Below, one piece after another: positions 21,265 through 32,988 of a stretch of 50,101 nt of DNA; position 1 is the stretch's first letter; every line of letters begins with the position of its first letter. This DNA comes from Myxococcota bacterium (GTDB lineage Bacteria; Myxococcota_A; UBA796; CAJQPC01). The DNA is taken from assembly GCA_036229005.1 (NCBI GenBank), contig JAZAMN010000035.1, forward strand, positions 1 through 50,101, read 5' to 3'. A program made the translations under genes and the position numbers. Below the pieces are notes generated by a model. That model made no database searches. It was not told the origin of the DNA and saw only the letters and a list, made by a program, of their open reading frames with translations.

Positions 21265-22838
21265 CAGAAGTGCTGGGCGGTGGCGCGCTTGAGGATGGTC
21301 TCGTAGCCGGGGGGGTAGGGCTCGGAGAGCAGGCAGCCGGGCTCGATGTAGCGGTAGATGTCGGCGTAGGTGACGACCTGGGTGGGGGAGATGCGCCGGT
21401 GGACGTGGTGGGGGCGCAGGTCGTCGGGGTGCCGGATGCCGGCGGCGCCCAGCAGCTCCATGAGGCTGTGGACGGTGGCGTGGTGGTAGTTGGCGACGCG
21501 GGGGATCTTGTCCTTGACCACCAGGCCCTCGACCAGATGCTCCTTCTGGGTGGCCACGCCGGCGGGGCAGTCGTTGTTGTTGCAGCGCAGGGCCTGGATG
21601 CAGCCCAGCGAGAACATCATGGCGCGGGCCGAGCTGCAGAGGTCGGCGCCGGCCGCGAGCCGCACGAGCATGTCAAAGCCGGTGACCACCTTGCCGGAGG
21701 CGATGATCTTGAGCTGGTCCCGCAGCTCGAAGCCCACCAGCATGTTGTGGGCCCAGGCCAGGCCGTCCAGCAGGGGCATGCCCATGTGGTTGGCGAACTC
21801 CAGGGGGGCCGCGCCGGTGCCGCCCTCGCCGCCGTCGATGGTGATGAAGTCCGGGCGGATGCCGGTCTCGACCATGGCCTTGCAGATGCCGGCGAACTCC
21901 CAGGGCTGGCCGATGCAGAGCTTGAAGCCGACGGGCTTGCCGCCGGACTCGGTCCGCAGGGTCTGGATGAACTCCAGCAGGCCGATGGGCGTGTGGAAGG
22001 CCTTGTGGCCGGGGGGCGAGAGCACGTCCTGGCCCATGGGCACGCCGCGGATCTCGGAGATCTCCTGGGTGACCTTCTTGGCGGGCAGGATGCCGCCGTG
22101 GCCGGGCTTGGCGCCCTGGGAGAGCTTGAGCTCGATGACCTTGACGGTGGGGCGGGTGGCGTTCTCCCGGTAGCGCCCGGCGTCGAAGCCGCCGTCCTTG
22201 GCGCGGCAGCCAAAGTAGCCGGTGCCGATCTGCCAGATCAGGTCGCCGCCGGGCTCCAGGTGGTAGGGGCTGATGCCGCCCTCGCCGGTGTTGTGGGCGA
22301 ACCCGCCCTTGGCCGCGCCGCCGTTGAGGGCCAGGATGGCGTGCTTGGAGAGCGAGCCGTAGCTCATGGCCGAGATGTTCAGCAGGCTGGCCGCGTAGGG
22401 CTGGCTGCACTGGTCGCCGCCCAGGGTGATGCGGGGCGGGTGCTCGGGGGCGTGGACGGCGCGCAGGCTGTGGGCGATCCACTCGTAGCGCTCGCCGTAG
22501 ATGTCGTGCTGGGTGCCGAAGGGCTGGGTGTCGAGCTCGGCCTTGGCGCGCTGGTACACGACCGCGCGCTGCTCCCGGGAGAAGGGGCGGCCGTCGGTGT
22601 TGGGCTCGATGAAGTACTGCTGGATCTCGGGGCGGATGCCCTCCAGCATGTAGCGAAAGTGCCCGATGATCGGGAAGTTCCGCAGGATCGCGTGCTTGTC
22701 CTGGTACATGTCCCACAGGCCCAGGATCGTCAGCGGCGCGAGCAGCAGCTCTGCATAGAACGCCGGGTGCCAGTACGCGCCGATCAGCGCGACGGTGGCG
22801 TGGGATGCGAGGACCAGGAGCAGGAAGACGTTGCGCAT
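21264..22838 (-). CDS. Stand-alone FMN-binding glutamate synthase family protein with N-terminal TM helices
   Basis: ISAMSYGSLS, NTGEGG, ELKLSQGAKPGHGGILP, DGGEGGTGAAP, GCIQALRCNNNDCPAGVATQ. Confidence 0.93.
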   Translation of the reverse strand: MRNVFLLLVLASHATVALIGAYWHPAFYAELLLAPLTILGLWDMYQDKHAILRNFPIIGHFRYMLEGIRPEIQQYFIEPNTDGRPFSREQRAVVYQRAKAELDTQPFGTQHDIYGERYEWIAHSLRAVHAPEHPPRITLGGDQCSQPYAASLLNISAMSYGSLSKHAILALNGGAAKGGFAHNTGEGGISPYHLEPGGDLIWQIGTGYFGCRAKDGGFDAGRYRENATRPTVKVIELKLSQGAKPGHGGILPAKKVTQEISEIRGVPMGQDVLSPPGHKAFHTPIGLLEFIQTLRTESGGKPVGFKLCIGQPWEFAGICKAMVETGIRPDFITIDGGEGGTGAAPLEFANHMGMPLLDGLAWAHNMLVGFELRDQLKIIASGKVVTGFDMLVRLAAGADLCSSARAMMFSLGCIQALRCNNNDCPAGVATQKEHLVEGLVVKDKIPRVANYHHATVHSLMELLGAAGIRHPDDLRPHHVHRRISPTQVVTYADIYRYIEPGCLLSEPYPPGYETILKRATAQHF

Positions 22839-22895
22839 ACCCGGACTCTACTGCGGGGACGCGGAGAGCGGGGGAGGCCCTGGACTTCGAGCCGC

Positions 22896-23507
22896 TCAGG
22901 CGGGGATGAAGCCCCGCTCGATCAGGTGGTCCACCACGAGCTGCGCGCAGCCGTCGATGTCGTGCTTGACGGTCTCGATGTGGACCTCGGGCGCCAGGGG
23001 GGCCTCGTAGGGGGCGTCGATGCCCGTGAAGCCCTTGATCTCACCGGCCATGGCCTTCTTGTAGAGGCCCTTGGGGTCGCGGGAGGCGCAGACCTCCAGC
23101 GGGGTGTCCACGAACACCTCGACGAAGCGGCCCTCCGGCAGGATGTTCCGGCAGTGGTTGCGGCCGGCGCGGTAGGGCGAGATGAACGCGGTGCACACGA
23201 TGACGGTGCTGTCCGCGAAGAGCTTGGCCACCTCGGAGATGCGGCGGATGTTCTCCTGGCGGTCCTCGGGCGCGAAGCCCAAATCGGAGTTCAGGCCGAA
23301 GCGCACGTTGTCGCCGTCCAGCCCGTAGGTGAACACGCCGCGCTCCAAAAGGAGCTGCTCCACGCGCCGGGAGATGGTGCTCTTGCCGCTCCCGGAGAGC
23401 CCGGTGAACCACAGCACGGCGCCCTTCTGGCCGGTCAGGGACTCGCGCTGCTCGGCGCTGACGTTGGCGTCGTGCCAGGTGATGTTGGTCGCGGTGGGCT
23501 CGGCCAT
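22896..23507 (-). CDS. cysC: Adenylyl-sulfate kinase
   Basis: [41 protein letters not shown]. Confidence 0.96.
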
Positions 23508-23552
23508 CTTGGGGGTCCTCGTCAAAGACGCCCCAGGCATATCTCGTTCCGC

Positions 23553-25079
23553 TCAGGCCAGCGCTTGAGCGACCCCATCGGCGACGTGCAGGGCCATCGC
23601 CATCACGGTGACCTGGGGGTTCACGCCCAAAGCCTCGGGGAAGGTGCTCGCGTCGCTGACGTAGAGGTTGTCCCAGCCCCAGACGCGGCCCTCGGGGGTC
23701 GTCACGCTGGTGTCCTCGCTGGTGCCGATCCGGCAGGTCCCCTGGGGGTGCGAGCTGGTCGCGAGGATCCGATGGTAGGGCAGGGCATCGTGGAGGGCCC
23801 CCCGCACCTCGTCCATCGTCCTGACGAGCCCCGCGCCGGCCACCGGGAGGGCCAGGTACTCGGCCCCCGCGGCGAAGAAGACCTCGGCCACGGTCTGCAG
23901 GCCGCGCAGCAGGGTGAGGCGGTCCTGATCGCCGAACTGCACGGACACGCCGCCGGGGGAGACGGACGCGACGGTGTCGATGTCGTGGACCAGCACGCCG
24001 GCCAGCGCCAGGTACTTCATGTCGGCCATCACGGCGTTGAGCTCGGGGCCGGGCTCCAGGGGCATCGCGATGTAGTTGGCGTCCGGGGTGAGGGTCGCCG
24101 TCTCCATCAAGAAGCCCTGGTCGTAGCGGTCCACCCAGTAGCCCTGGGAGACGCCCTTCCAGTGCTTGATGACCTCGGGCATGCGCGCGAAGATCCCCGT
24201 CGCCGGGTGCAGCCGCAGGTTCTGCCCCAGGGCCGGGCTCTCGCTCAGGCCGCTCTGCATCAGGAAGCGCGGGGAGCCGATGGACCCGCCCGCGACCAGC
24301 ACGGCCCGCGACTTGACCGACCAGCTCCCGATGGGCTCCTGGGAGTGGGGGTCGAGGATCTCGCCGTGCAGACCATCGACCCGCACCTCTCCAGCCGCCA
24401 GGGCCCCCGTCGCCCGGCAGTCAGACCAGACCCCGACGAGGTCAGACTGGAGCGCTTCGGCCAGAAAGGATCGGTCCGCGGTCCACTTTCCGCCGCTGGG
24501 GCAGCCGAGCTGGCAGATGCCGCAGCCCACGCAGCCCGGGGCGGAGCGGGGCATGTAGCTGCCGCCCTCCCAGCCCAGCTTGGCGATGCCCTCGGCAAAG
24601 ATGGTGTTGTTGCGGCCCTGGACCTGGAGCGGGTTCTCGCCCACGGCCAGGGTGCGCATGATCCGCTGGGTGTTGGCTTCAAAACTGCGCTTTGGGTCGA
24701 ATCCAAGCTCGTCGCGCCAGCGCGCGAGCATCTCCGGCCGGATGGGGAAGGAGATGGCGGAGTTGATCAGCGTCGAGCCGCCCACGCCGCGGCCGCCGTT
24801 GATGGGCATCCAGCCGTTGCCGATGGCGACGCGGTTGCCGCGCTCGGCGTAGAGGTGCCGGAAGGCCCAGGAGTTCGAGGGCTTGAAGTCCCGGTTGTTC
24901 CAGTGGCGCCCGGACTCGAAGAGCAGCACCCGCAGCCCCGCCTCCGCCAGACGCGCCGCCGCCGCGCAGCCCCCCGCGCCGGCCCCCAGGATGGCCACGT
25001 CGCACTCCAGCTCCAGGGTGCCGCTGTTCTGGGACAGCCACTGGGACGCGCTGTGCTTGCCGGGCTGGAAGGCGCTCAT
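23553..25079 (-). CDS. GMC family FAD-dependent oxidoreductase
   Basis: ILGAGAGG, GRGVGGSTLIN, CVGCGICQLGC, SHPQGTCRIG, DASTFPEALGVNPQVTVMA. Confidence 0.92.
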   Translation of the reverse strand: MSAFQPGKHSASQWLSQNSGTLELECDVAILGAGAGGCAAAARLAEAGLRVLLFESGRHWNNRDFKPSNSWAFRHLYAERGNRVAIGNGWMPINGGRGVGGSTLINSAISFPIRPEMLARWRDELGFDPKRSFEANTQRIMRTLAVGENPLQVQGRNNTIFAEGIAKLGWEGGSYMPRSAPGCVGCGICQLGCPSGGKWTADRSFLAEALQSDLVGVWSDCRATGALAAGEVRVDGLHGEILDPHSQEPIGSWSVKSRAVLVAGGSIGSPRFLMQSGLSESPALGQNLRLHPATGIFARMPEVIKHWKGVSQGYWVDRYDQGFLMETATLTPDANYIAMPLEPGPELNAVMADMKYLALAGVLVHDIDTVASVSPGGVSVQFGDQDRLTLLRGLQTVAEVFFAAGAEYLALPVAGAGLVRTMDEVRGALHDALPYHRILATSSHPQGTCRIGTSEDTSVTTPEGRVWGWDNLYVSDASTFPEALGVNPQVTVMAMALHVADGVAQALA

Positions 25080-25582
25080 GCGTAGCACCCGGGGGTGAAC
25101 TCCAGGCGCTCGAGCACCCGGGCGTTGTCGAAGTAGGCCATCGCCAGCACGGACTTCACGCCGTCGACGGCGGCGCGCCTCAGGATGACCTCGTGGGTGG
25201 ACCAGGCCTGCAACAGGGTGAGAGCCTCCGCGGGGTCCAAGAGGTGCAGCGGGGTGCCCAAGGAGAGCCGAGCCCCCCAATCCAGGGCCCCCAGGGTGTA
25301 GCGCAGAGGCTTGACGCTCCGGGCGTGCAGGCCGTCATCGAGCAGGGCGTCCACGCGGGCCACGCCGTCGATCTCCAGGAAGGAGGGGCCGAGGGGATTG
25401 CCGGTGGGGAACAGCGCCTGGCCCAACGCCGAGACCTGAAGTTGCTCGCGCTCGGACAGCACCTTGTAGCCAGGCGAGGACGGGGGCAGGTGCAGGAAGG
25501 ACGCGAGCCCACCGGCCAGTGAGGCGGCGGCGAGGGCGGCTCCACCCACGAGCAGGCGGCGGCGGGTGATCAACGAGGCCAT
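25076..25582 (-). CDS. Tat-signal small subunit, gluconate-2-dehydrogenase subunit 3-like partner of the GMC enzyme
   Basis: ITRRRLLVGG twin-arginine signal; ATGA overlap with the GMC gene. Confidence 0.7.
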   Translation of the reverse strand: MASLITRRRLLVGGAALAAASLAGGLASFLHLPPSSPGYKVLSEREQLQVSALGQALFPTGNPLGPSFLEIDGVARVDALLDDGLHARSVKPLRYTLGALDWGARLSLGTPLHLLDPAEALTLLQAWSTHEVILRRAAVDGVKSVLAMAYFDNARVLERLEFTPGCYA

Positions 25583-27678: not shown

Positions 27679-29304
27679 ATGGTGCACGGCGGACGACTTG
27701 TCGCCCAGGCGCTGGCAAAGGAAGGTGTGAGTCACCTCTTCACCCTCTGCGGCGGACACATCCAGCACATCTACGATGGCTGCCTGGACGAGGGCATCCG
27801 GGTGGTGGACTTCCGGCACGAGCAGTCGGCGGGGCACGCGGCCGAGGGCTGGGCGCGCGCCACGGGGCAGATCGGCGTGGCGGCGGTGACCGCGGGGCCG
27901 GGCGTGACGGATGCGGTGACGGCGGCGGCGAACGCCTTCCGGGGCGGGGTGCCGATGCTGCTGATCGGCGGGCAGGGCCCCAGCTTCTTCAAGGAGATGG
28001 GCTCGCTGCAGGAGATGGACCACGTCTCGCTGCTGCGCTCGGTGACCAAGTGGAGCGCCACGGTGCCCGAGACCCGGCGCATCCCGGACTACATCGCGAT
28101 GGCGATCCGCAAGGCGACCACGGGGGTGCCGGGCCCGGTGTTCCTGGAGATGCCCCTGGACATCCTGATGAACATGGTCAAGCCCAGCACCGTGAGCTTC
28201 CCCGAGAACTACCGGACGCAGGCGGCGGTGGGCGGGGACCCGGCCTTCATCGCGCAGGCGGCGGCGCTGCTGGATGGCGCTCAGCGGCCCATGGCCATCG
28301 TGGGGACCCAGTGGTGGTTCTCGCCCTACCGCGAGCAGATCGGGGCCTTCGCGGAGCACTTCGACCTGCCGGTGTTCTGCAACGGCGGCGCGCGCGGGGC
28401 CCTGCCGCCGGAGCACCCCAACAACTTCCGCCTCTGCCGCTCCAAGGCGCTGGCGCAGGCGGACGTGGTGCTGGTCTGCGGGACGCCCTGGGACTTCCGC
28501 CTGGGCTACGGCGCCAAGGTGCCCAAGGAGACCAAGGTCATCCAGGTGGATCTGGACCCAGAGGTCATCGGACACAACCGCGGAGCCGATCTGGGGATCG
28601 TGGCGGACACCGGACTGGCCTTCAAGCAGCTCATCGACGCCAGCGCGGGTGCATCGCAGCACGCGGGCTGGATGGACACGGTGCGCGCCGCGGAGCAGGC
28701 CCGGATGGACAAGATGCTCCCCGAGATGGGCAGCGACGAGGTCCCGGTCAAGCCCCTGCGCTTCTCCAAGGAGCTGGCCGTCGCCATCCCGGCTGACGCC
28801 ACCATCGTCTGTGATGGCGGAGACATCGTGGGCACCGCCGCCAAGCTGGTCGCCACCCACAAGGGCGGCCACTGGATGGACCCGGGCCCCCTGGGGACGC
28901 TCGGCGTTGGACCTGGCTTTGCGATGGCCGCGAAGCTGGCGCGCCCGGACGCTCCGGTGTTCATCATCTACGGCGACGGCAGCTTTGGGCTGAACGGCTT
29001 CGAGTACGAGGCCGCGATCCGGCAGGGCATCCCCTTTGTGGGGGTCATCGGCAACGACGCGGCCTGGACGCAGATCCGGCGCGGCCAGGTCCAGATCTTC
29101 GGTCAGGCGCGCTCGCCCGCGACCGAGCTTGAGTTCACCCGCTACGACAAGATCGTCGAAGCCATGGGCGGGCACGGCGAGTACGTCGAGCGCCCCGAGG
29201 ACATGGGGCCGGCCATCGCGCGGGCCCTGGCCAGCGGCAAGCCCGCCTGCGTGAACGTGAAGATCGGCAGCAGCGACTTCCGCAAGGGGGCCATCTCGGT
29301 GTGA
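27679..29304 (+). CDS. TPP-dependent acetolactate synthase-like / 2-hydroxyacyl-CoA lyase-like (IlvBL) enzyme
   Basis: FTLCGGHI, RHEQSAGHAAEG, VTAGPGVTD, WMDPGPLGTLGVG, GDGSFG...GNDAAW. Confidence 0.9.
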   Translation: MVHGGRLVAQALAKEGVSHLFTLCGGHIQHIYDGCLDEGIRVVDFRHEQSAGHAAEGWARATGQIGVAAVTAGPGVTDAVTAAANAFRGGVPMLLIGGQGPSFFKEMGSLQEMDHVSLLRSVTKWSATVPETRRIPDYIAMAIRKATTGVPGPVFLEMPLDILMNMVKPSTVSFPENYRTQAAVGGDPAFIAQAAALLDGAQRPMAIVGTQWWFSPYREQIGAFAEHFDLPVFCNGGARGALPPEHPNNFRLCRSKALAQADVVLVCGTPWDFRLGYGAKVPKETKVIQVDLDPEVIGHNRGADLGIVADTGLAFKQLIDASAGASQHAGWMDTVRAAEQARMDKMLPEMGSDEVPVKPLRFSKELAVAIPADATIVCDGGDIVGTAAKLVATHKGGHWMDPGPLGTLGVGPGFAMAAKLARPDAPVFIIYGDGSFGLNGFEYEAAIRQGIPFVGVIGNDAAWTQIRRGQVQIFGQARSPATELEFTRYDKIVEAMGGHGEYVERPEDMGPAIARALASGKPACVNVKIGSSDFRKGAISV

Positions 29305-30680
29305 GCAGCTTCCTGGACCACATGAGCGACGCGCACCGCAAGCGCATGTCCGTGCTCGCCGACACCCGCCTGGTCTCCGCCGGGCAGGTGTTGATCGAGC
29401 GGGGTGAGCGCGACCAGGACTTCTACCGGGTCGAGCAGGGCTCCCTGGAGGTCGTGGACACCACCTCCCGGCCGCAGGTGGTGCTGGACGTGCTGGGCGC
29501 CGGCACCTTCGTAGGGGAGATGGCCTTCATCACCCGCCAGCCCCGCACCGCGCAGGTCCGCGCCGCCGAGGACGCGGTGGTCCTGTGCTGGAAGGCCGCG
29601 GTGCTCCAGGCCGAGCTCGCCAAGGACGCCGAGCTGGCCGCCGCGTTCTACAAGGCCGCCGCGCAGCTCCTGAGCCAGCGCCTGAGGGCCACCACCCGGG
29701 CGGCGACGGGCGGCAGCCTGGGGCGGGGGGAGTCCAACACCATGGACCTGGGCGGTGCGCGCGGCCTGGCCGACCGGATCAAGGCCGGCCTGTTGGAGGT
29801 GGAGCGCCTGGTCCGGGAGGACGAGCGGGCCGCCCGCCAGGAGCTGGGGGCGGTCGCCGCGGAGCTCATGGATGCCGGAGGGCGCCTGTTCACCTCGCTG
29901 GGCGAGCGCGAGGCCACCGAGGCCGGCAAGCTGCTCCAGGCCGAGCTCCAGCCCTACCTGCTCCGCTCCCGCACGGGCTCCCTCTGCGCGGAGCTCGGGG
30001 GCGGCGGGGCGCAGGTCCTGGCCCACGTCGAGCTGGGGGAGGCCACTGGCGGAGATGCGCTGGGGCGCCTGCTCGACCGCAGCCTGCTGATGTTGCCGAC
30101 CGCCGTCGCGCTGCGGGCGCGGGTGCAGGCCACCGTGGACGCGGTCGAGTCCGTGCTGCCCGAGGGGAGGGTCCGGGTGCTCTGCATGCCCGTCGGTCCC
30201 GGCACCACCATCGCCCGCCTGCACCCCACGCTGGCCATGCACGGCGGCGAGGTCACCGCTGCAGACGGCAACCGGGACTCCCTGGCCTCTTTGAACACTG
30301 GCGGCACCATCGGCACCGGGCGCGTGCGCATGCGCCTGCTGCACGAAGACCTCGGCCTGCTGGCCGTCAAGGGCAGCAGCACCTTCTTCGGGCCCCAGAA
30401 CGTCGTCGTGCTGGACGGACTCGCGGAGTATCTGCCCACGCGTGTCCTCGCGCACATGCTCCCGGCCCTCAAGCGCTCGCTGGACCGGGATGCGCACTTG
30501 GTGATCAACATGCTGTTGCCCAGCCGAGATCACTTCGTCTTCGATCACCTGCTGGACTGGCGCACCCTGAGGCGCCAGCCCGAGCCGCTGCTTGACCTGC
30601 TCCGCACCCTGGAGTTCGGAGACCCCAAGGTGGTCTGGCAGGAAGGCTCCGCCGCGGTGATCGTCGCCCGCGGAGGCTGA
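29301..30680 (+). CDS. Cyclic nucleotide-binding domain fused to a degenerate SAM-methyltransferase-like domain
   Basis: FVGEMAFITRQPRTAQVRA (cNMP phosphate-binding cassette); C-terminal GLAEYL...FDHLLDWRTLRR. Confidence 0.8.
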   Translation: MSSFLDHMSDAHRKRMSVLADTRLVSAGQVLIERGERDQDFYRVEQGSLEVVDTTSRPQVVLDVLGAGTFVGEMAFITRQPRTAQVRAAEDAVVLCWKAAVLQAELAKDAELAAAFYKAAAQLLSQRLRATTRAATGGSLGRGESNTMDLGGARGLADRIKAGLLEVERLVREDERAARQELGAVAAELMDAGGRLFTSLGEREATEAGKLLQAELQPYLLRSRTGSLCAELGGGGAQVLAHVELGEATGGDALGRLLDRSLLMLPTAVALRARVQATVDAVESVLPEGRVRVLCMPVGPGTTIARLHPTLAMHGGEVTAADGNRDSLASLNTGGTIGTGRVRMRLLHEDLGLLAVKGSSTFFGPQNVVVLDGLAEYLPTRVLAHMLPALKRSLDRDAHLVINMLLPSRDHFVFDHLLDWRTLRRQPEPLLDLLRTLEFGDPKVVWQEGSAAVIVARGG

Positions 30681-31231: not shown

Positions 31232-32044
31232 ATGATCGAGACCATCCAGACCCAGCACGGCATCGTCGGCCGCGAGCGCGAGCTCACCGACCTGCTCGCG
31301 TGCATCCAGGCCGGCCGCCACGTTCTGCTCGAGGGCCCCGTCGGCGTCGGCAAGACCGCCATCGCCAAGGCCATCTCCGCCGCTCTGGGGCGCGGCTTCC
31401 AGCGGGTGGACGGGGACGGCCGCTACACCGAGTCCCGCCTGGTCGGTCAGTTCGACCCGCCCATGGTCCTGGAGCGCGGCTACCAGCGCGAGGCCTTCCA
31501 GCCCGGGCCCCTGCTCCGCGCGATGCAGGACGGCGGCGTGCTGCTGCTCAACGAGCTCAACCGCATGCCCGAGGGCGTCCAGAACGTCCTGCTCCCCGCC
31601 CTGGACGAGGGCCTGGTCCTGGTCCCCCACATCGGCGCGATGCACGCGGCGGACGGCTTCGTGGTCATCGCCACCCAGAACCCCGCGGAGTTTGTCGCCA
31701 CCGGCGATCTGTCCGAGGCGCTGCAGGACCGCTTCGAGCTGGTCAAGCTGGACTATCAGTCCGAGGAGGAGGAGCGGGACATCGTGCTCGGACAGGCTCG
31801 GCACACCCCCTCCGCTGAGATCGTGCAGCGCGCGGTCGCCATCGCCCGCGCGACCCGTCAGGACCCCCGGGTCCGGCGAGGTGCGTCCGTCCGCGCCGCC
31901 ATCGCCATCGCCGACATCGCGGTGAAGCTGGACGGCGACGTCGACCGCGCCGCCGCCTTGGCCCTGCCCACCCGCATCGAGCTGGTGGACGAGCGCGGCG
32001 GCGACTTCCAGTCCCTTCTGGAGGGCTGGAAAAAAAAAGCCTGA
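31232..32044 (+). CDS. MoxR-family AAA+ ATPase (frame-0 product; ends WKKKA* just after an A9 run)
   Basis: GPVGVGKT Walker A, LLLNELNR Walker B variant, ATQNP, LSEALQDRF. Confidence 0.93.
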   Translation: MIETIQTQHGIVGRERELTDLLACIQAGRHVLLEGPVGVGKTAIAKAISAALGRGFQRVDGDGRYTESRLVGQFDPPMVLERGYQREAFQPGPLLRAMQDGGVLLLNELNRMPEGVQNVLLPALDEGLVLVPHIGAMHAADGFVVIATQNPAEFVATGDLSEALQDRFELVKLDYQSEEEERDIVLGQARHTPSAEIVQRAVAIARATRQDPRVRRGASVRAAIAIADIAVKLDGDVDRAAALALPTRIELVDERGGDFQSLLEGWKKKA

Positions 32045-32084
32045 GCGGGGAGCCTGAGTCGGACAAGCCGGCCCCGAAGCCGAC
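32020..32084 (+). other. Candidate programmed -1 frameshift / transcriptional slippage cassette
   Basis: GGAGG (32020-24), A9 run (32030-38) read AAA AAA AAA, stop at 32042-44, and downstream pairings CGGGG/CCCCG and GTCGG/CCGAC. The -1 frame is open into the VWA ORF. Confidence 0.7.
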
Positions 32085-32085
32085 C

Positions 32086-32988
32086 TTGAACCTGACGCGC
32101 ACGGCCACGATGCCGGCCAAGCCCAACCCCAACCAGAAGTTCTCGCCCTTCTTCGAGTCGGACGCGCAGGCCCAGGAGCTGGCCGAGCTGCCCGCCGGCT
32201 GGGAGGCCGCGCAGTCGCTGCACCGCCTCAAGAAGCGCCTGAGCGACAAGGCCCTGCGCATCGTGAGCGAGCGCGCGATCGACGCCATCCTCCAGCGCGC
32301 CAAGGCCCTGCTGCGCCACGCCGCGCACCCCACTCGCCTGACCCGACGGAGCTGGCCGGCTGAAGGGGACCTGGACCTGGACGCCACCCTGGAGGCCCCG
32401 CGGCAGGTCCCCCAGGCGCCCATGACCGCCCCCTTCCAGCCCCACGACATCGTGGTCGCGCGCCAGGAGCCCCGGGACGCGGACGTGGTCGCCATCCTGG
32501 ACATGAGCCTGTCCATGACCGGCGAGAAGATCGCCCTGGTGGCGGTCGCCGCTGCGATCCTGCGCATGAAGTTGGAGAGCGTCGCCATCGTGGCCTTCGA
32601 CACCAACGCCCACGTCCTGGTCCGCCTGGACGAGAGCCTGCCCCTTCGCGAGCTGGTGCGGCGCATCATCATGGTGCCCGCCCAGGGCTACACCCACATC
32701 TCCGCGGGCCTGGAGGCCGGCCTGGAGCAGCTCGCCCGCAGCAAGCGCCGCGAGCGCGTGGGCCTGCTGCTCTCCGACGGCATCTCCAACGTGGGCTGGG
32801 ACCCGGTCCGCGTCGCCCAGCGCTTCCCGGCGCTACACGTGGTCCAGCTCGGCCGCGACCTGCCCCAGGGCTCCAAGACCTGCCGTGACATGGCGCGCGC
32901 CGGCCGGGGACGCCGCTTCCACGCGCCCACCTACGTCGCGCTCCCCAGCGTCGTGAAGCGGGTCATCCGCGAGGTCTTCCGGGTCTGA
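32086..32988 (+). CDS. von Willebrand factor A (VWA/CoxE-like) domain protein in the -1 frame of MoxR; likely the C-terminal part of a MoxR-VWA fusion
   Basis: LDLDATL, ILDMSLSM MIDAS (DxSxS), GYTHIS, LLSDG. No SD precedes the candidate starts, and the frame is open back through the A9 run. Confidence 0.88.
   Translation: MNLTRTATMPAKPNPNQKFSPFFESDAQAQELAELPAGWEAAQSLHRLKKRLSDKALRIVSERAIDAILQRAKALLRHAAHPTRLTRRSWPAEGDLDLDATLEAPRQVPQAPMTAPFQPHDIVVARQEPRDADVVAILDMSLSMTGEKIALVAVAAAILRMKLESVAIVAFDTNAHVLVRLDESLPLRELVRRIIMVPAQGYTHISAGLEAGLEQLARSKRRERVGLLLSDGISNVGWDPVRVAQRFPALHVVQLGRDLPQGSKTCRDMARAGRGRRFHAPTYVALPSVVKRVIREVFRV

Follow-up and report, generated by a model that had tools for sequence, protein, structure and literature searches.

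Among described AAA+ systems, those closest to the one reported here include the chlD genes of Mg and Co chelatases that are read with a frameshift (fs-chlD), in which an AAA+ domain leads through a poly-A site and a -1 shift into a linker and a VWA domain. Short and long subunits come from one gene, natural fusions are found, and the genes occur in both bacteria and archaea (PMC3711429, PMC9227772). The efficiency of fs-chlD cassettes went up with run length (10%, 40% and 63%; PMC3711429). In dnaX, one gene likewise supplies an AAA+ ring with a short and a long product (tau/gamma), made by ribosome slippage with stimulators in E. coli or by polymerase slippage at nine A's (A9) in Thermus thermophilus (PMC5009743, PMC1088944). 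In NorQ/NorD and CbbQ/CbbO, the MIDAS-bearing VWA partner is encoded by a separate gene (PMC13036017; bioRxiv 10.64898/2026.10.09.757910). Here we report a moxR-type AAA+ gene that ends in an A9 run and is followed in the -1 frame by a VWA domain, found in a 50,101-nt stretch of a Myxococcota genome (contig JAZAMN010000035.1, positions 1 to 50,101; hereafter, the window), together with the MoxR-VWA family to which it belongs.

To our knowledge, only a few cellular, non-mobile genes of prokaryotes have conserved recoding (prfB, dnaX, copA, csoS2 and chlD). No description of recoded MoxR-VWA genes was found in the literature searched on MoxR/AAA+-VWA frameshifting and chlD, and the word 'MoxR' is absent from the main text of PMC3711429 and PMC8211752 and from the available part of PMC5009743. 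The fs-chlD genes reported without known function in genomes lacking chelatase pathways were found by loose tBLASTn (PMC9227772), thus this set may overlap the MoxR-VWA family, and the chelatase database may include members of it named chlD. The recoding principle itself is not new; the family would carry the chelatase strategy, in which a single gene encodes a ring subunit as well as one that adds the adaptor to the ring part, over to a different, non-chelatase AAA+ family.

The slip site and its two open frames

A first-pass annotation of the window, made from the sequence alone, had proposed that a programmed -1 frameshift lets one locus make both a 270-aa MoxR ATPase and a MoxR-VWA fusion of about 585 aa. 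The A9 run and its in-phase A_AAA_AAA heptamer are present (Table 1), the open reading frame (ORF) has the length given, and a one-base shift at A9 leads to a predicted ATPase-VWA fusion of 585 aa. The moxR frame crosses the run as AAA AAA AAA and continues as GCC TGA; a stop 3 nt past the slip site is also found in 31 of 32 Thermoleophilia sites. The -1 frame is stop-free, as claimed, from A9 to the stop at 32986-32988, with VWA_CoxE/VWA matches inside it. Lysine had been described as almost always AAG in these genes, and outside the slip site the ten window genes use AAG 105 times and AAA never. Four A9/T9 runs exist in the 6.4-Mb genome and the moxR run alone connects two long frames, no pair of long frames being joined by the other A8-A9 runs inspected. 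Both counts point to more than chance.

Table 1 Features of the moxR-VWA locus and its 3' neighbor in the window
Feature	Position	Strand	Basis
moxR-type AAA+ ATPase ORF, 270 aa (short product)	31232..32044	+	Translation; Pfam AAA_5 top-scoring, 86.6 bits
Walker A, residues 35-42	31334..31357	+	Translation; G35, G38, G40, K41 and T42 invariant in alignment A1
Walker B, Asn-Glu for the usual Asp-Glu	31550..31555	+	N107 and E108 invariant in alignments A1 and A4
Shine-Dalgarno (SD)-like GGAGG, 7 nt 5' of the last heptamer; not conserved, role doubtful	32020..32024	+	Sequence
A9 slippery run with in-phase A_AAA_AAA (32032-32038)	32030..32038	+	Sequence
-1 frame: linker of low complexity, helical stretch and VWA domain (C-terminal portion of the fusion, predicted at 585 aa)	32038..32988	+	Translation, domain matches
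Zero-frame stop TGA, one codon past A9	32042..32044	+	Sequence
Pseudoknot of the first-pass annotation, four complementary segments; not supported	32046..32084	+	Sequence
MIDAS DxSxS of the VWA domain (D157, S159, S161)	32500..32514	+	Translation; D/S/S invariant in alignment A4
Oxidoreductase/SelD-type fusion gene, start overlapping the VWA stop codon	32988..35201	+	TIGR03169 and TIGR00476 over cut-off

Homopolymers are prone to errors and in-frame fusions are common in the MoxR-VWA family, so that the split could reflect a broken gene, or a simple fusion gene that was misassembled. The A9 run is bridged gap-free by three contigs from three studies (X1 record 3; X2 record 8, depth 143; X3 record 9, depth 1058), a check made on assembled contigs, among which X1 may be the source sample. 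No indel is found in any of them, which answers the doubt about the run length raised by the first-pass annotation. The X2 and X3 contigs differ by 11-12 bases in 900 and are therefore from other strains. With both halves intact and the same offset repeated in more than 100 independent assemblies of varied run length and sequence, an assembly error or broken gene is barely credible. The sequencing runs containing the window stretch are marine.

Conservation of the offset and slip site

We pooled 142 genome loci from several searches, with exact duplicates removed by 300-nt identity. A metagenome set of 62 non-duplicate loci, whose species partly overlap the genome set, was obtained after dropping 17 duplicates, among them L293, which was inspected separately. 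Exact duplicates and L018, a contig without moxR, were excluded from the counts, as were contig-end loci from the folding. The genome loci divide into 115 at -1, 17 in-frame fusions, seven lacking a VWA match, which comprise contig ends and a single stand-alone moxR, two with extra indels that were classed apart (L008 and L163a) and one at +1, so that the offset is -1 in 115 of the 116 with a clean shift. An in-phase X_XXY_YYZ heptamer lies at the end of the AAA domain in 114 of the 115 loci at -1, and in all 110 loci tested the -1 frame stays free of stops between the heptamer and the point where the VWA match ends. The metagenome set gives 31 loci at -1, all with the heptamer, 19 fused, 11 cut before the VWA match and one at +1. 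Homologues thus keep the slippery site together with its offset, and in-frame fusions occur among them, two outcomes that the first-pass annotation had held open. Natural fusions also join the same two parts, as 119 of the 120 longer proteins listed align to both halves.

The A9 run that closes moxR is therefore a real, deeply conserved recoding site. The central proposal of the first-pass annotation, that a short MoxR and a MoxR-VWA fusion come from one locus through a -1 change of frame, agrees with the run length, the offset in homologues and the natural fusions, and the two predicted products are very probably made by recoding.

The family spans Myxococcota, Thermoleophilia, Chloroflexota, Hadarchaeota and Thermoplasmata. 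Matches were found in 26 of 151 Thermoleophilia, 2 of 251 Chloroflexota, 6 of 61 Hadarchaeota and 18 of 121 Thermoplasmata genomes. It is patchy inside the phylum of the window as well (34/401 genomes), and a strong VWA orthologue (E < 1e-79) is present in 34 of 61 related genomes. Scanning viral contigs by motif yielded 111 loci, and the MoxR-VWA family was in none of these.

Some genomes carry more than one copy. In Thermoleophilia, four genomes have an in-frame AAA-VWA fused paralogue plus a second copy, adjacent in three; the fused gene lies directly upstream of the shift-site copy, or beside it elsewhere (L180, L181 and L182 in G481, G511 and G451; L169 and L152 in G493). A stand-alone moxR copy without a downstream VWA has lost its slip site and lies 6 kb from a shift-site copy (L188 and L170, G517:C49). 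Near another recoded gene, a second and unrelated MoxR and VWA-like pair is encoded on the opposite strand (L095:281-2431).

A run of this kind could also grow and shrink during replication, so that cells switch between split and fused states at the DNA level. One species cluster (P0003) does have both split (300 aa) and fused (592 and 612 aa) records, the near-identical loci L290 and L293 differ in run length, and L177a and L280 have +1 offsets. L293 has other indels, so these cases may be sequencing errors, and the few records concerned (L177a, L280, L290/L293 and the P0003 cluster) are compatible with DNA prone to slippage as well as with errors of sequencing. The -1 state prevails (115 vs 1 in genomes, 31 vs 1 in metagenomes), A9 is identical in the three studies, and most Thermoleophilia sites (C_CCA_AAA, see below) have no long run at all. 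Phase variation is thus a very unlikely account of the locus.

Start of the VWA reading frame

The two candidate starts of a separate VWA protein, TTG 32086 and ATG 32110, had been noted as lacking an SD, and this holds: they reach -1.7 kcal/mol, compared with -6.6 to -12.2 kcal/mol at five other starts, with an anti-SD motif as the probe. Upstream of the first ATG, the -1 frame of the window is coding-like, with a third-position GC content of 0.94-0.96. A conserved linker peptide found in 21 loci precedes any start codon in 17 of them, and in 13 of 55 loci the -1 frame contains neither ATG nor GTG nor TTG ahead of a conserved Gly-Trp motif. The AlphaFold model of a natural fusion (P0003; mean confidence, pLDDT, 86.7) has two folded parts, with a disordered linker starting right after the lysines of the shift site.

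If these were two ordinary genes, the VWA protein would start at TTG 32086 or ATG 32110 through translational coupling and the A run would be incidental. Public gene calls use either start, most loci having the linker peptide have a Met or Val after it, and NorD and CbbO are separate proteins. Such an arrangement is highly improbable given starts without an SD, relatives with no start codon in the region, and coding bias and a conserved peptide ahead of the starts; it would also leave the rare-codon slippery sites of 114 of the 115 loci unexplained. In annotations, recoded MoxR-VWA genes appear as two ORFs, and the start given for the VWA is wrong.

Classes of slip site and downstream hairpins

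The run lengths are bimodal (26 A7, 3 A8, 48 A9, 13 A10 and 1 A11), and a further 27 sites, of the Thermoleophilia class, read C_CCA_AAA. When A7 runs were collected regardless of phase, 22 of 22 were in the single phase that gives A_AAA_AAA, which calls for a codon ending in A, a base that makes up about 5% of third positions in these genes. The codons of C_CCA_AAA are similarly rare in the gene bodies (CCA in 8 of 286 Pro, AAA in 8 of 119 Lys). As this site has no long homopolymer, slippage there is possible by ribosomes only; C_CCA_AAG has been reported as shift-prone in E. coli (PMC5009743).

The site classes differ in the structure that starts 4-8 nt past the heptamer. Its mean energy is -23.5 kcal/mol at A7-8 sites (same-gene control, -14.8) and -20.9 at C_CCA_AAA sites (control, -12.7), compared with -9.8 at A9+ sites (control, -11.8). 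Hairpins beating shuffles (p <= 0.05) were found in 15 of 21 short-site Myxococcota loci, 2 of 45 A9+ Myxococcota loci and none of 15 archaeal A9+ loci, and the metagenome set replicated this split (5/9 short vs 2/26 long). We used this position-anchored test in place of a z-score from folding the whole 70-nt region, which was weakly informative (mean -0.63). RNAalifold found no consensus pairs in 13 short-site Myxococcota cassettes, because their stems sit in different registers. The short or long state changed at least nine times on the tree. From these sequence features, the short-site loci are best read as using ribosomal -1 frameshifting with a hairpin. The hairpin-aided short sites and the bare A9-10 sites, archaeal ones included, are matched natural cassettes for the question of ribosome versus polymerase slippage.

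The strongest cassette of the set has C_CCA_AAA followed by a perfect 17-pair hairpin (L142:2298-2343, -40 kcal/mol). Two metagenome loci, L296 and L306, have a dnaX-type A_AAA_AAG site with just six A's, in L306 with a hairpin. Archaeal loci of Hadarchaeota and Thermoplasmata (L104, L174-L177, L200 and L205-L213) have A9 sites with the -1 offset and no hairpin, and are candidates for archaeal recoding.

Relationship to known AAA+ proteins

The protein has a single AAA+ domain of the AAA_5/AAA_3 type with an adjacent MIDAS-bearing VWA, and reaches no named NCBIfam subfamily cut-off (GvpN, 84 of 267; MadB, 76 of 475). The nearest solved folds to a natural fused relative are NorQ and CbbQ (TM 0.78-0.85 across the target; identity, 22-27%). 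Sequence comparison places midasin, NorQ and CbbQ nearest among solved proteins, with midasin/Rea1 as the best PDB match. The structure matches listed are NorQ, CbbQ, midasin, Lon, RuvB and, weakly, CobS, with no ChlI, BchI or ChlD among them.

Chelatase models are far from their cut-offs (TIGR02031, 42 of 499.55 bits; TIGR02442, 44.8 and 34.3 of 779.45), and the natural fusions score 43-69 bits against them or are unlisted. No chelatase subunit exceeded the cut-off in the five genomes searched, and neither CobN nor ChlH is among the recurring neighbors of moxR, the genome itself not having been searched for either. The protein is thus NorQ/CbbQ-like and not a chelatase. The first-pass annotation had favored a MoxR chaperone over a chelatase; the fold and the chelatase models bear this out, with a chaperone function predicted.

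With fs-chlD the family thus shares the layout and differs in its AAA_5, NorQ/CbbQ-like domain (42-69 bits against chelatase cut-offs of 500-779), its Walker B and its C_CCA_AAA variant. The usual Walker B motif is Asp-Glu. The whole family has Asn-Glu instead, with Walker A and the arginine-finger region intact, and its ATPase may be slow or unusual. In contrast to NorQ/NorD and CbbQ/CbbO, the VWA is tethered to the ring subunit by recoding or fusion, and no client gene is linked. Midasin combines AAA_5-type domains and a MIDAS domain on a single chain, which holds six AAA domains; a MoxR-VWA gene with one AAA domain would build its ring from separate chains.

Probable slip mechanism and predicted products

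The first-pass annotation had attributed the shift to the ribosome, stimulated by an SD-like GGAGG upstream and a pseudoknot downstream. The programmed -1 site with its heptamer stands; the stimulators fare less well. The GGAGG at 32020-32024 exists and pairs at -9.8 kcal/mol, but it is absent in the congeners and the A9+ class is at the control level (mean -4.4 vs -4.7). All four segments named for the pseudoknot exist, yet the RNA 3' of the site is not more stable than its shuffled versions (z +0.70, +1.28 and -0.70, with a tool that does not model pseudoknots). Neither the GGAGG nor the stems are conserved in three same-genus relatives, and a stimulatory structure 5-9 nt downstream is found in neither the window nor its congeners. 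Since pseudoknot and SD are missing in the congeners and the A9+ class, 'programmed ribosomal' is less certain for the window than 'programmed'.

The A9-10 loci have lost their stimulators at the nine-A length, which suggests polymerase slippage. Run lengths nearly skip eight (3 A8 sites against 26 A7 and 48 A9), matching the nine-A length tied to transcriptional slippage (PMC1088944, PMC5009743). Both lysine tRNAs, a feature that has been connected with slippage by the polymerase at Thermus dnaX (PMC5009743), are also encoded in the genome of the window. At the window locus, polymerase slippage probably carries most of the recoding.

The same two products would arise if the ribosome slipped -1 on the three AAA codons, with or without the GGAGG, the nearby stop or a pseudoknot. 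This is the sole option for the C_CCA_AAA relatives and the likely one for the A7 relatives, hence probably the common mode of the family, and it accords with the -1 offset in 115 of 116 genome loci. The window also shares A_AAA_AAA_GCC_TGA with a chelatase cassette that shifts 10% in E. coli, and chelatase cassettes shifted more with a longer run, although the slipping step is not settled there (PMC3711429). The SD-like site is strong here, but its distance of 7 nt from the heptamer is below the 9-14 nt given for SD stimulation of -1 shifts (PMC5009743; the counting convention may differ). With no hairpin at the site, SD and stems missing in congeners, and the gap at A8 in the run lengths, ribosomal slippage appears the less likely principal route in the window, though it is the main rival.

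We therefore lean towards a joint reading in which the conserved recoding site yields both products, most likely here through RNA polymerase adding one A. On an mRNA with nine A's, translation would terminate after one more codon and produce the short subunit; on one with ten A's, it would continue into the linker and the VWA domain. In the A7-8 or C_CCA_AAA relatives, the ribosome would arrive at the same outcome by slipping -1 against a hairpin. By analogy with the ChlI5D ring model (PMC13297055) and NorQD (PMC13036017; bioRxiv 10.64898/2026.10.09.757910), short subunits and a minority of fused subunits could form a mixed AAA+ ring to which a MIDAS domain is tethered. Such a ring would grip and remodel a client protein encoded elsewhere, like ChlI/ChlD and NorQ/NorD, and the recoding may serve to set the hexamer:adaptor stoichiometry, as the first-pass annotation suggested.

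Several results weigh against this reading or parts of it. Every A9 holds an in-phase A_AAA_AAA, so ribosomes can slip there as well, and ribosomal slippage predicts the near-universal -1 offset at least as well. The A run is uncovered in RNA runs X13, X16 and X18 and in DNA run X5; RNA contigs from X13 and X16 cover pieces on either side of the junction, in one sample parts of both halves, and no transcript or peptide crosses it. The most divergent locus at -1 (L178a) has no heptamer. Nine of the 18 Thermoplasmata genomes have a fused copy only (no slippery run was observed, nor did the query used retrieve a second copy), therefore the short form is not required everywhere. Clustering of the neighborhoods of 80 loci found no family-wide partner or conserved client gene, the neighbors varying by lineage.

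The hairpins, too, are uneven. Those of Thermoleophilia beat shuffles in just 6 of 32 loci, though they are placed right (-17.3 vs about -9 elsewhere), and a fixed 7-pair hairpin across the 32 Thermoleophilia cassettes has 72% paired cells compared with 42-59% in slid controls, with weak covariation. The link between short sites and hairpins is not significant when kinship is counted (six independent pairs; 3.2 in the same and 0.1 in the opposite direction, median p 0.25), nor with the shuffle-based trait (3.2 vs 0.8, p 0.6), in a test that is underpowered. As a raw pattern the link is strong, but it falls short of proven co-evolution.

Across the family, we tentatively propose, at somewhat less than an even chance, that the make-up of one AAA+ ring is set by three interchangeable routes, with repeated switching between them. 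These would be ribosomal -1 slippage with a hairpin (A7-8, C_CCA_AAA), polymerase slippage from nine A's, and permanent fusion. Compared with dnaX, which belongs to an unrelated AAA+ clade with another function, the long product here requires the shift and both modes appear interleaved within one family, even one order. If true, the three routes form a natural series on when evolution picks ribosome over polymerase recoding, with archaeal cases added.

Gene neighborhood

The moxR-VWA gene and the SelD-type gene that overlaps its end are clustered in the window and in 3 of 80 loci, all within one genus. A role of the SelD-type gene as general client of the family was rejected, as the linkage is confined to the genus of the window. 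The SelD-type protein has Cys in its active-site motif, in a genome that encodes a selenocysteine tRNA. A promoter and terminator scan of the window gave nothing useful.

The gene panD is divergent from moxR in the window. The regions 21270-25280 (minus strand) and 27679-30680 encode a GMC-type oxidoreductase-like ORF, a thiamine pyrophosphate (TPP)-dependent enzyme and a cyclic-nucleotide-binding protein, and a gene for the TPP-dependent enzyme is also close to moxR in 15 other loci. In three Chloroflexota and Thermoleophilia loci (L097, L107 and L185), a DUF2284 predicted metal-binding gene lies just 5' of the recoded gene, and one database protein (P0112) fuses a DUF2284 protein with the product of the recoded gene. 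In Thermoleophilia, a DAK2/DegV fusion gene is often found 3' of the recoded gene.

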